DNA of 64,000 nt from Octopus vulgaris (lineage: Eukaryota), in contig OX597815.1 of the NCBI GenBank assembly GCA_951406725.2, positions 38,688,001 to 38,752,000 of the forward strand, given 5' to 3'. The first letter of the stretch is position 1. Each line of letters starts with the position of its first letter. Shown piece after piece: positions 41,666 to 64,000 of this stretch. The notes beneath the pieces are model-generated. The model was not told the DNA's origin. It was given only the letters and a program-made list of their open reading frames with translations, and searched no databases. The translations under genes were made by a program, and so were the position numbers.

Positions 41666-41730
<65 letters not shown>

Positions 41731-41764
41731 GATGACGATGATGATAATAATAATAATAATAATA

Positions 41765-42190
41765 ATAATTTTTCGGTTCCCTTCTTGATCATTCCTAGTG
41801 CTCCTACGATCACTGGTATTGTAACCGCCTTGAGATGCCACATTTTCTCAATGCGGTTACAATACCAGTGATCGTAGGAGCACTAGGAATGATCAAGAAG
41901 GGAACCGAAAATTATATGAGAATGATCCCTGGCTTACCATCCCTGCAAGAAGTGCAAAAGATTGTCTTAACTGGTACATCACACGTATTGAGAAGAGCAT
42001 TGTCGATGTGAGAACTGTTGCTGCTCATGTATTTTAATTTAACATTAAAAAAAAAAATTTTTTTTAAATGAACGAACTACTGAGTTTGGTTTAATGGCCT
42101 ACCAATGTATACTATGAGTTTCTTTGCCCTAGGAGTCGGTAAGACACTCGGCAAGAAATGGAAGCAAATTTGAAAGAAGAAAAAAAAAAG
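41765..42190 (+). mobile_element. 5'-truncated family C element with inverted 5' segment
   Basis: 41765-41828 is the reverse complement of 41853-41915; then AVTIPVIVGALG...LSM* plus 3' UTR. Confidence 0.9.
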
Positions 42191-42212
42191 TAATAATAAT
42201 AATAATAATAAT

Positions 42213-44665
42213 AAAGTATCAAAATAACAAACTCGGCATCTGAACAACTTTGGACCCACATAACAACTGAAGAGGTCACCCAGGCACTGCAAAACTAAGC
42301 AACTGGAAGGCACCTGGGCATCACAAGATCCCCAACTTCTGGTTGAAATATCTAACAGGAATGCACAAAAAGCTGGCTGAAAACTTTAACAGCATACTAG
42401 CAGAGCCAGAGACAATGCCTGAATGGCTCACGAAGGGGAAAACCATCTTAATTCCCAAATCAAATGAAACAACAAAACCAGAAAACTACAGACCAATAAC
42501 CTGCCTCCCTACTATGTTCAAGGCATTTACTGCAGTGATATCGCAAAAGCTGAACAAGCACCTGGACGAAAACAAACTGTTCCCAGAAGAACAGAAAGGA
42601 TGCCGCAAAGGCTCATATGGCTGTAAAGATCAACTAATGATTAATAAAGCCGTAACTGAAGACAGCCACAGAAAGAAGAAAGGCCTCAGTATGGCCTGGA
42701 TTGACTACAAAAAGGCGTTTGATAGCATCCCCCACACATGGATCCTCGAAACACTAGCCATTAACAAAGTAGCACCAACAATCATAAAATTCATAGAGCA
42801 CTCTATGAATAAATGGCAAACAGTCCTACACCTCCAAACAAAAGAGGGACTCATGAAAACCAAAGACATCCCCATTAGAAGAGGAATATTCCAGGGAGAC
42901 ACGCTCTCTCCACTCCTTATCTGCTTGGCACTGTCACCTCTATCTGATATGCTAAATAGAACTGGATGCGGATATAAATGTTACGGCAAAACGATCAGCC
43001 ACCTTTTATATATGGATGACCTAAAACTATACGCTGCAAATGACAAACAGCTGGAAACACTATTAAAGACAGTTCATGGATTTACCAAAGAAATAGATAT
43101 GAAATTTGGATTAGAAAAATGCGCCAAAGTAACCATGAAAAGAGGAAAACTAGTTAAGAGTAACAACATCACACTAGATAAAACCAATGAAATAAAAGAA
43201 TTAGACCAAAGCCAAACTTACAAATACTTAGGAATCCATGAACTAGATAAGACACAACACTCACAAATGAAAGAGAAAATAAAAAAAAGAATATTATAGA
43301 CGAGTTAGATCAAGACTAAAAACAGAGCTCAATGCTAAAAACAAGATAATAGGTATCAACACTTTAGCTGTCCCAGTTATAAGTTACAGCTACAATATCC
43401 TTAACTGGACACGAAATGAACTGTCCAAAATAGATAGGAAAACAAGAAAAATACTGACAGGATCTAGGATGCATCACCCAAAATCTGACATAGAAAGACT
43501 ATATATACAACGTATAGAAGGTGGTAGAGGCCTTATACAGCTGGAAAACTACTATAAAATAACCACCATAGGACTGCAAAAATACCTACTTCAGAAGGAA
43601 GGAAAACTGATCCAGATAGCAGCAAAACACGAGCAAAACAAAAAACTGTTCTCAGTATTTAAGGAAGCTGACAAATACAAACAAGAAATCAAACCACCTA
43701 ATAAACATGAAGAAGAAGAAGATGATGAAGAAACAACAAAAGCTATAAAACAAATGAAATCCAAACTAAAAATAGAACAGCAACGAGCCATGATAAAACG
43801 ATGGCAAGAAAAGCCCCTTCATGGTAAATACTGACTAAACTAAATGCAAAAGAAATAGACAAAGAAAAATCCCAGCAATGGTTGAGAAGCTCAGGACTCA
43901 AAGCAGAAACAGAGGGATTTTTAATTGCAGCACAAGACCAAAGCCTCCCCACCAGAAATTACCAAAAACATGTAATGAAAAGAAATATTACAAGTAACTG
44001 CAGAATATGCGGAGATGAACAAGAAACAATAAATCATATTATCTCTAGCTGCCCAGTCCTGGCTAAGAAGGAATATATTCACAGACATGACAAAGTTGGA
44101 ACCTACATACATTGGAAGCTATGCCAACATTATGGAATAACAACAGAAAAAAGATGGTATAGGCACACACCAGAAAAGGTCACAGAAAACGAGAAAGCAA
44201 CCATACTCTGGGATATGCCGATACACACAGATAGAGAAATTAAGGCCAACAGACCAGATATAGTTGTCAGAGATCATGAAGAGAAAAAATGCTTTCTAAT
44301 TGATGTATCAATACCGGCAGATGACAACGTGTCTCTAAAAGAAATGGAGAAACTCTCAAAATACAAAGACCTGGAAATAGAGGTAACTAGAATGTGGAAC
44401 CTGAAAACAGAAACAATTCCTATCATAGTAGGTGCATTAGGCATGATAAAAAAATATTCAGACAAATACATAACAAAAACACCAAGACTTACAAACACAT
44501 ATAACATACAGAAAATTGCACTACTAGGCACTGCACACATCCTACGCAGAACACTTTCCATACAATAACCATCAGAGCATCACAACAAATCACAGCACAT
44601 ACCCAAGGCACACGGAGCTGCGCTCGGTAGTGAAGTGAAAGCACGCTATAAAAATAAAACTACTG
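42213..44665 (+). mobile_element. 5'-truncated R4/Dong-type element, family A (RT + CCHC + RLE; frameshifts and a stop)
   Basis: ORFs 42343..43299 (GIFQGDTLSP, YMDDLK), 43469..43834 and 43882..44568 (CRIC..H..C, RHD, RPD, D, K..KY); (AAT)n on both sides. Confidence 0.95.
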
Positions 44666-44714
44666 AATAATAATAATAATAATATCATCAGTATTATTAT
44701 CATTATTATTATTT

Positions 44715-45290
44715 ATTGTTTTTGCACAGCTTCTAACTCTGGAGGTGTGCTACGGAGCCAGATGTTCACTACAAGTGAACTAAGGTAACACCTCTTATTT
44801 TTCGAGCACCTTCCGGAGTATTCGAGCGGTTCCAAGCAGTGCTGTTTTCTGCAAGTGCTCCACTCTTATTGCAGCCCATATTTGTTTCATGTACTTCTTA
44901 ACATTTTTACTCACTGTTCCCAGGGCTCTGACATTTATCGGTACTACTACCATCTTTTTGCTTGACCACACCTGCTTAACCTCCCAAACTAATCTATCAT
45001 ATCTATCGTCTTTTATTTCTTCTTTATCGCATACCTTGTTGTCAGCTGTGTATGTTATATCTATGATCCAGCATCGTCTGCGTTCTTTCTCAATTAACAT
45101 ATGTCTGGTTTCCTATTCTTTATCTCATAGTCGCACTGAATCATAAAATCCCATAGGATCTTTGCATTATCATTTTCGATGTTGCCTTCGGGTTTATGTT
45201 CGTACCACTTTTTTGCTCTGTCAAGTCTATACTTGTTGCAAAGTGTCCAATGGACAATCCTTGTTATATTGTCATGACATCTTTGATATT
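44715..45290 (-). mobile_element. 3' fragment of R4/Dong-type element, family E
   Basis: ORF 44795..45100 (IIDI...RYDRL...LQKTALLGTARILRKVLE); tail is TAA-rich on the minus strand. Confidence 0.8.
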
Positions 45291-45299
45291 CTTTCTGGT

Positions 45300-45930
45300 G
45301 TACATCTGATATGGTGTAACAATCACCACTAGATCAAAATCAGAATGTAATATAGGCTGTTATCAGCATTTCGCAACATTCCCTCCCCTTTGTCGAGAGT
45401 CGTGGCATGCCGTCGAAGTGGGCGCTAAAGTCCATCCTGCGTTCCAGATTTCCATTTGTCCCAAACAGTTGAGGGAAGTGCTGCTCAAATGCCACATCCG
45501 CTCGGGCTCCAGTACCCTGCGCCGAAGACCGTATAGTGACATTGTTACCACGTTGCGCCTCTGCCACTTGGATCCATCAAGCATACCCAGTAACTGGGAA
45601 GGCCTTCTAAGCCTATCTAGGTTGACCATACAGATCACAAATTTGTGGTGTGTGTAGCCGATCAGTTTGAAAAGTGGACAACTTACACTATCTTTATCTA
45701 CCAGCCTACAGAATACCTTGACGGACCGAGCGAGCGATGCTAAACGATTCCGACAAATCACCGTTTGCTTTGATCACTGAACAGATGCCGCTATACGTTG
45801 CAGCGATCCAGCCTCTGAAAACGGCACCGAAGCCAGACGCTGGCAGGACTGCCCCCAAATATTGATGGTCGACCCTGTCAAAACCTTTTGATTGATCCAA
45901 GCCCCACCCATTCCAGGTTCCTTCCCAATC
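45300..45930 (-). mobile_element. L1/Tx1-like RT fragment
   Basis: DQSKGFDRVDHQYL...GFG...WI...SVRQG. Confidence 0.65.
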
Positions 45931-46025
45931 CTCTCTGCTTTCAAAGGACGTGAAGGTGGACGAAATGCTGCTAAGTATTTTGCCCGACGTGCTAACGGTT
46001 CTGCCAGCTCGCTACCTTAATAATC

Positions 46026-46072
<47 letters not shown>

Positions 46073-46092
46073 TATAAGTATAATGATAATAA

Positions 46093-62835: not shown

Positions 62836-62854
62836 AATAATAATAATAATAATA

Positions 62855-62914
<60 letters not shown>

Positions 62915-62925
62915 ATAATAATAAT

Positions 62926-63011
<86 letters not shown>

Positions 63012-63016
<5 letters not shown>

Positions 63017-63820
63017 GACAAAGAAAAATCCCAGCAATGGTTGAGAAGCTCAGGACTCAAAGCAGAAACAGGGATTTTTAATTGCAGCACAAGACCAAAG
63101 CCTCCACACCAGAAATTACCAAAAACATGTAATGAAAAGAAATATTACAAGTAACTGCAGAATATGTGGAGATGGACAAGAAACAATAAATCATATTATC
63201 TCTAGCTGCCCAGTCCTGGCTAAGAAGGAATATATTCCCAGACATGACAAAGTTGGAACCTACATACATTGGAAGCTATGCCAACATTATGGAATAACAA
63301 CAGAAAAAAGATGGTATAGGCACACACCAGAAAAGGTCACAGAAAACGAGAAAGCAACCATACTCTGGGATATGCCGATACACACAGATAGAGAAATTAA
63401 GGCCAACAGACCAGATATAGTTGTCAGAGATCATGAAGAGAAAAAATGCTTTCTAATTGATGTATCAATACCGGCAGATGACAACGTGTCTCTAAAAGAA
63501 ATGGAGAAACTCTCAAAATACAAAAACCTGGAAATAGAGGTAACTAGAATGTGGAATCTGAAAACAGAAACAATTCCTATCATAGTAGGTGCATTAGGCA
63601 TGATAAAAAAATATTCAGACAAATACATAACAAAAACACCAAGACTTACAAACACATATAACATACAGAAAATTGCACTACTAGGCACTGCACACATCCT
63701 ACGCAGAACACTTTCCATACAATAACCATCAGAGCATCACAACAAATCACAGCACATACCCAAGGCACACAGAGCTGCGCTCGGTAGTGAAGTGAAAGCA
63801 CGCTATAAAAATAAAACTAC

Positions 63821-63821
<1 letters not shown>
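63012..63821 (+). mobile_element. 5'-truncated family A element
   Basis: Nearly identical to 43854-44665; ORF 63132..63725. Confidence 0.93.
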
Positions 63822-63908
<87 letters not shown>

Positions 63909-63931
63909 TGGTAATGATGATAATAATAATC

Positions 63932-63972
<41 letters not shown>

Positions 63973-64000
63973 GATGATGATGATGATGATGATAATGATG
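63822..64000. repeat. (AAT)n/(GAT)n microsatellite
   Basis: Direct reading. Confidence 0.95.

Follow-up and report, generated by a model that had tools for sequence, protein, structure and literature searches.

The 64-kb stretch of contig OX597815.1 examined here (64,000 nucleotides; hereafter the window) raises the question why several families of retrotransposons with a restriction-like endonuclease (RLE) lie chained one behind the other among tracts of the microsatellite (TAA)n. A sequence-only reading of the window had proposed a guild of about seven (TAA)n-targeting families that renew and spread their own target in strand-polarised arrays. The answer reached here is that the window quite probably holds old, separate lineages of Dong/R4-type elements in an octopus-like genome, whose enzyme targets (TAA)n and duplicates the tract, with young copies building chains of mixed age. 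The phenomenon is well explained by the known biology of Dong/R4 elements and involves no new kind of element; both the TAA target and octopus Dong-R4 families are already in print.

Clusters of retrotransposon units

A profile made from 57 full-length relatives of family B (1203 positions) recovered 13 RLE retrotransposon units in the window, one of which, at 57.2 kb (I1), matched weakly (E 0.002). A fourteenth unit, D, had no profile match and was recognised through its 73-80% DNA identity to the end of family B. The families carry letters of this report's own, matched to those of the sequence-only reading where possible, and number seven to nine, the exact figure hinging on the treatment of D and A2old as older relatives of B and A. 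The proposed chaining of distinct families in three clusters (9.1-12.2, 41.7-49.35 and 56.9-64 kb) holds to a large extent, as the 3' untranslated regions (UTRs) differ from family to family and 12 of the 14 units fall inside these clusters; the two solo units outside them, F (22.7-23.8 kb) and H (28.3-29.4 kb), are both on the minus strand. The clusters are real. Indeed, nine of the 13 neighbouring RLE pairs are separated by at most 800 nt, a threshold picked after the layout had been seen, versus a mean of 2.7 under random placement, and none of 20,000 random placements scored as high, so that the clustering exceeds chance. In addition, all 20 composite TAA/TTA tracts (at least four units) lie within 31 nt of the end of an RLE unit or of a non-coding element, S, these ends having been set by eye.

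(TAA)n as the target of young copies

Families A, B and C contribute seven young copies that are 0.6-2% apart: B1 and B2 differ by eight substitutions per 1308 nt, A3 and A4 by seven per 808 nt, A1 by eight (A3) and seven (A4) per 384 nt, and C1 and C2 by six per 286 nt. This bears out the claim of near-identical copies tens of kilobases apart. A sequencing-run search with words of B2 found shares of 0.62-0.85 in 19 of 24 rows (seven studies, four organism labels, very small contig sets included), a result that fits a multi-copy family and carries no information on array order.

Same-strand TAA flanks each of the seven young copies on either side, that on the 5' side of B2 depending on where B2 starts. 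Around B1, a stretch of 37 nt, consisting of (TAA)6 followed by TTATAAGTATAATGATAAT, is present on both flanks, and the window contains this 19-nt marker at 46,072 and 47,449 and nowhere else, once on each side of B1. The marker-bearing duplication indicates that the tract pre-existed and was duplicated, TAA thus being the target and not only a tail. This duplication, which is a single event, measures at least 19 nt and probably about 37-41 nt. A possible duplication of 54 nt surrounds one copy of S (S5), its marker being a TGA unit, of which there are 76 among 623 tract units. Re-use of the tracts is further supported by young copies that stand in them beside older neighbours: A1 next to D, A3 next to E and B1 next to S5. 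The proposed guild narrows to families A, B and C, and the idea that the arrays spread the microsatellite stands as far as target duplication and tract re-use are concerned, its net gain resting on one good duplication. By eye, about six bases at the 5' junction of B1 (46095-46100) match neither the tract nor B2 and may be an untemplated addition.

Relatives in other contigs

The relatives compared were the best 80 of at least 239 loci confirmed in metagenome contigs, not all of these loci being independent. Same-strand TAA came first at 28 of 39 3' ends, the remainder having an opposite-strand tract (two) or none (nine). At truncated 5' ends, same-strand TAA occurred within 100 nt upstream in 16 of 31 cases, the background being three in 533 windows of 100 nt, and at full-length 5' ends within 700 nt upstream in nine of 18; an opposite-strand tract was seen at two of the 49 5' ends, each of which also had a same-strand tract. 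Chains were encountered as well, joining different families at three loci (L010, L080 and L035) and copies of the same family at a fourth (L005). The same polarity and multi-family chains in relatives elsewhere indicate that chaining is a general result of TAA targeting and is not special to this genome. Homologues were also found in Exaiptasia, Acropora and Spodoptera, hosts of the kinds from which Dong elements are known.

Family B protein and its relationships

The near full-length copy B2 spans positions 5-1203 of the 1203 profile positions in three frames, representing one long open reading frame (ORF) with a central reverse transcriptase (RT) and no apurinic/apyrimidinic (AP) endonuclease. 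RVT_1 (E 4.6e-26) is the sole Pfam domain within its first 825 aa. The C-terminus carries a CCHC finger, an RHD motif and a PD..D..K restriction-like endonuclease, with C175, C178, H187, C192, R203, P260 and D261 invariant across 36 sequences. A sequence search among solved structures returned five matches, all of them R2 proteins; one with the C-terminus found nothing. The C-terminal model (predicted local distance difference test 90.7) had seven Foldseek matches at E ≤ 0.001, all R2 (TMq 0.63-0.69), followed by viral endonuclease domains. In a fold search with the whole model, in which the N-terminus was not covered, R2Tg (Z 31.1, root-mean-square deviation 5.2, 371 aligned) tied with L1 (Z 30.3). 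An N-terminal zinc finger pattern was present neither in B nor in any of the 57 full-length relatives. Residues 138-220 form a confident four-helix unit in the model, which has no Pfam match and for which the best Atlas match, Myb_Rap1 (score 0.86), is a lead only; R4/Dong elements are described as having a divergent Myb/SANT-like N-terminal domain (PMC7998251). The architecture of B (RT, CCHC/RLE C-terminus of R2-like fold and no N-terminal zinc finger) is the one given for R4/Dong in that paper, which supports the earlier assignment to the Dong/R4 type.

A tree of 54 C-terminal sequences included nine of the 14 window units (D1 was dropped as too short; A1, C1, H1 and I1 were left out). The window families do not form one group in this tree, as B joins an O. 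bimaculoides protein (support 100), C joins an unnamed relative (100), and E and F make up a distant pair (99), 34-42% identical to A and B. Given the support of 22-60 at deep nodes, no claim is made as to an order of divergence or of transfer. Over 177 aa, family B is 83% identical to the O. bimaculoides protein P0263, a match that points to an octopus as the host. The RTs of A and B are 52.9% identical, a value exceeded in 95 of 141 long alignments to B, indicating that these lineages are old and separate.

Two frame breaks interrupt B2. Near 61,250, B2 has a spacing of 94 nt that includes a 16-nt duplication, whereas the spacing is 111 nt in A and 37 codons in most relatives (48 of 51), indicating a loss of about 33 nt that no second copy within the window covers. 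Near 61,528, 13 nt are missing that B1 has. Family B, which had been considered reconstructable, can thus not be restored from the window alone. The start of B2 lies at about 58,697 or 57,935; the stretch 57,935-58,690 was not accepted as a 5' UTR of B, since it would place the profile start 1055 nt from the tract versus 224-424 nt in nine relatives.

Rfam gave 50 matches over the window, all below the gathering score and mostly hairpins, with no ribozyme among them; the top match is a fold-back at the 5' end of C2 (41769-41916), where about 70 nt are duplicated in inverted orientation and meet the TAA tract at a short AT-rich motif that both share. A descriptor of our own for the hepatitis delta virus (HDV) ribozyme, run without a working positive control, had no matches in the 5' ends of 14 relatives and six window stretches. 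Five relatives (L010, L013, L022, L061 and L080) have a sequence in common within the 120 nt that follow the 5' tract; by eye it resembles an HDV ribozyme, but the descriptor missed it. RNA folding of eight end segments gave none that stood out (best z -1.7, at the 3' end of S), the L022 control having been placed at wrong coordinates.

How the chains may arise

According to the scheme proposed here, a single protein (Myb-like region, RT, CCHC finger and RLE) would recognise (TAA)n and nick the TTA strand. The RNA would be reverse-transcribed from this nick by target-primed reverse transcription (TPRT), the mechanism established for R2, and the element would consequently read in the same direction as TAA. 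A staggered second cut would duplicate part of the tract (37 nt in the one case seen), leaving TAA on both sides to be hit again, so that young families would land beside older elements and mixed-age chains would result. With time, the tracts may drift through mutation and slippage to TGA, CAA, TAC or TTA runs, eroding old junctions, and a TTA run would represent the target on the other strand. The non-coding element S, which occupies the same tracts with the same direction, may travel as a passenger of this enzyme.

Several observations weigh against this scheme. Firstly, a marker-bearing duplication was found in only two of the 15 units scanned, the second one (S5) on the common TGA unit; the other 13 have no marker and most flanks are pure TAA, so that these cannot tell. 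Secondly, a TGA marker on the 5' side of A1 is not repeated on the 3' side, and no marker duplication was evident by eye at 12 related loci with both flanks. Thirdly, same-strand 5' TAA was present in only one of seven decayed units, A2old, and 24 of the 49 5' ends of relatives were without a same-strand tract, some of these being contig ends or profile starts. Lastly, the homologue searches returned no protein named as Dong, R4 or Rex6, and the relatives in the C-terminal tree are unnamed. The claim that an insertion leaves TAA on both sides fits the seven young copies, B2 conditionally on its start, and is illustrated by the B1 duplication; among the decayed units, only A2old conforms to it.

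Alternative explanations

A bolder version of the scheme is doubtful. It would have Dong enzymes cut (TAA)n with a stagger of about 40-55 nt and mobilise S, an element without a Dong-like 3' end, the two together being the main source of the genome's long TAA tracts, and with flips of the tracts, arising by mutation or during 5' junction formation, reversing array growth. S is non-coding (longest open frame 75 aa) and about 530 nt long. Its six copies are 79-88% alike, with variable 5' truncation and a 3' end that is identical in three, and all are on the plus strand with TAA at or near the 5' junction; S4 (14.85-15.19 kb), which has an internal deletion, extends cluster 1. There was no RLE profile match to S and no Rfam match to its copies, and its 3' end matched none of the Dong 3' ends found in the window and among the 80 relatives; a partner may lie elsewhere in the genome. 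As to the flips, TAA changes to TTA at 23767-23856, 57788-57825 and 62838-62923 in the window and at 4546-4603 in one relative (L074). A single substitution turns TAA into TTA, and likewise into TGA, runs of which are common; mutation plus slippage would thus be a sufficient explanation. In F1 and L074, both truncated copies, the flip immediately adjoins the 5' junction, which could mean inversion during integration.

In its strong form, the original proposal would make all seven families TAA-specific and strictly polarised, together forming a self-renewing system from which the microsatellite originates. The tracts, all 20 of which abut an RLE or S end, fit this picture, and so does orientation, as 12 of the 14 neighbouring pairs in clusters, counted by hand, are on the same strand (p 0.006) and TAA tracts cover 1221 nt on the plus strand versus 123 nt on the minus strand. 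Polarity is a tendency, however, since E opposes its own cluster, lying tail-to-tail with A3, and the tracts flip at three places. Moreover, same-strand TAA at the 5' junction is absent from all six units D, E, F, G, H and I, in which the effect of decay cannot be separated from that of a different target. D lacks a 5' tract and has (CTA)n at its 3' end, G and I are preceded by (GAT)n-type tracts, and E and H have no 5' tract, so that the statement that plus-strand copies sit in TAA applies to the young copies and A2old but not to D, G and I. Minus-strand TAA tails, reported for both E and F, were found for E, whereas F has a long minus-strand TAA tract (22 units) on its 5' side, beyond eight units of opposite polarity, and a tail that is a degenerate remnant. 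D, F and G had rightly been called decayed (D1 and G1 being fragments and F1 a solo copy). With E and F in addition belonging to a lineage distant from A and B, F abutting a flipped tract, and a single window being unable to reveal the origin of the genome's TAA tracts, the strong form is improbable.

A third possibility, that TAA is mainly a tail made by the element, the units having piled up passively in a repeat-tolerant stretch and each 5' TAA being the tail of a neighbour, is quite improbable. Several 5' tracts in the clusters are indeed the 3' tract of the preceding unit, unrelated pieces related to short interspersed elements (SINE-like) and RT pieces also occur inside the clusters, and old copies are without 5' TAA. 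Yet interruptions specific to the target recur on either side of B1 in its duplication, and the upstream neighbour in relatives is another Dong 3' end at six of the 25 TAA-flanked 5' junctions (five once a duplicate locus is removed, L010 being the same as L061); the other 19 have no recognisable Dong 3' end upstream, against a TAA background of three in 533 windows. Finally, although every junction passes through low-complexity DNA, it is very unlikely that the arrays are assembly artefacts in which repeat copies were joined via TAA tracts, because truncation points and neighbours differ, the copies are 0.6-2% apart and the intact B1 duplication requires correct joining of both flanks, chains being present in unrelated assemblies too, even though these are short-read contigs with a risk of their own.

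Other features of the window

Besides the reported families, the chains contain the six S copies, an RT fragment from a different clade and SINE-like pieces whose polarity is opposite (Table 1). SINE-like copies, which by eye we take to be tRNA-like SINEs, lie at 12198-12270, 18413-18540, 23905-23985, 29027-29191, 45939-46017 and 48871-49066, and their head abuts TAA tracts at 46,018 and 49,066 with a polarity opposite to that of Dong. In two relatives (L005, 1-200, and L025, 90-250), the 5' region is tRNA-like by eye, which would mean either that a SINE adjoins it or that the element has a polymerase III head. A decayed long interspersed element (LINE) occupies 12200-14750 on the minus strand, with an AP-endonuclease-like frame at 12333-12722 (by eye; no Pfam match), and its far end abuts the TAA tract of S4. 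Further away, an RT fragment of another LINE clade (6495-7052, minus strand) and a mariner-type transposase fragment (39562-40170, minus strand) were noted. Probable host-gene exons, one with a PDZ domain, are located on the plus strand at 15429-17942, 30151-30603 and 37810-38211, cluster 1 lying among them.

Table 1. Retrotransposon units, tracts and accompanying elements of the window.
Feature	Position	Strand	Description	Basis
S copies (starts)	9139, 10992, 11941, 14848, 47518, 49101	+	Starts of the copies of non-coding element S	
D1	9510-9860	+	Decayed 3' fragment of an older B relative; S1 adjoins the 5' end, (CTA)n tract on the 3' side	DNA identity to B end
A1	10072-10463	+	Young 5'-truncated family A copy flanked by TAA tracts	
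C1	10602-10907	+	Young 5'-truncated family C copy flanked by TAA tracts	
A2old	11584-11898	+	Older A-like fragment (UTR 87-88% to A) flanked by TAA tracts	
F1	22660-23766	-	Decayed solo copy; flipped tract at 5' junction; 3' boundary approximate	
H1	28300-29372	-	Very decayed solo copy with SINE-like element inside; boundaries approximate	
Tract	41667-41768	+	TAA/TGA tract at start of cluster 2	
C2	41769-42190	+	Young family C copy; 5' end (41769-41852) an inverted duplication of about 70 nt of C2	
A3	42215-44667	+	Young 5'-truncated family A copy; RT, CCHC and RLE spread over three frames	
E1	44712-45320	-	Copy of distant lineage, tail-to-tail with A3; 5' junction without TAA	
RT fragment	45321-46017	-	RT fragment of another LINE clade and head of SINE-like element; not RLE	Six-frame reading; weak RVT_1, E 0.012
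B1 duplication, 5' copy	46054-46090	+	37-nt target duplication, (TAA)6 and marker TTATAAGTATAATGATAAT	
B1	46095-47430	+	Young 5'-truncated family B copy	
B1 duplication, 3' copy	47431-47467	+	37-nt target duplication	
S5	47518-48045	+	Near-complete copy of S flanked by TAA	
G1	48193-48845	+	Decayed RLE fragment preceded by (GAT)n tract	
S6 and tract	49101-49350	+	5' piece of S and TAA tract at end of cluster 2	
I1	57020-57560	+	Strongly decayed RLE fragment preceded by (GAT)18; approximate boundaries	Profile, E 0.002
Tract	57617-57934	+	Long imperfect TAA tract with TTA/TGA/CAA interruptions	
B2	58697-62837	+	Family B copy of nearly full length; RT, CCHC, RLE and, as a lead only, a Myb-like region; 5' end about 58,697 or 57,935	
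Tract	62838-63014	+	Tract with polarity flips: (TAA)6 (TTA)19 (TAA)4 TTA (TAA)29	
A4	63015-63821	+	Young 5'-truncated family A copy flanked by TAA tracts	

Significance and comparison with known systems

The TAA targeting proposed here ties the abundant, recently active Dong-R4 LINEs of octopus to a defined target. Microsatellite targeting would lead to nests of mixed age, a point of relevance to cephalopod repeat annotation, assembly and microsatellite markers. The duplication around B1, with its marker, provides a first estimate of cut geometry in a setting where target duplications are normally invisible. The details of note are this long target duplication, the candidate passenger S and the polarity flips.

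Dong-R4 is reported to be an old, expanded coleoid family (PMC8967140), with five recently active families and 1129 insertions in O. vulgaris (PMC13282606) and a full-length Dong consensus in O. bimaculoides, recent activity not being evidenced in the test of that study (PMC9115989); the available portions of these octopus papers describe neither target site nor array structure. (TAA)n is given as the Dong target in most insects, molluscs and cnidarians (PMC7998251), and TAA targeting is described for Dong, DongAg and the snail element DongBg of Biomphalaria (PMC3812793). Dong elements of the R4 clade (Bombyx Dong, DongAg, DongBg, Darwinula Dong1/2) resemble family B in their RT and C-terminal RLE, the lack of an N-terminal zinc finger and the (TAA)n target. 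Unlike the window, the published accounts of Dong mention, in the parts available, no multi-family chains, 37-nt target duplication or non-coding passenger, and no description of multi-family Dong arrays or of a Dong duplication length was found in the searched literature, most subscription papers lying beyond its scope. Bombyx Dong possesses a 5' HDV-like ribozyme adjoining the TAA repeats (PMC3774820); none was found in B, which has two candidate starts, by the descriptor scan described above, run without a working positive control.

Beyond the R4 clade, R2 (R2Bm, R2Tg) has the closest solved RT and C-terminal fold to B and serves as the model for TPRT, but its N-terminal zinc fingers and 28S ribosomal DNA (rDNA) target do not hold for the window elements. 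Utopia and R9 are RLE elements with target duplications or tandem insertion too, although they belong to other clades and have other targets (U2 genes, rDNA), the rotifer R9 reportedly producing a very long target duplication. In reptiles, Utopia generates 20-bp duplications and some Utopia elements insert in tandem (PMC4640811).

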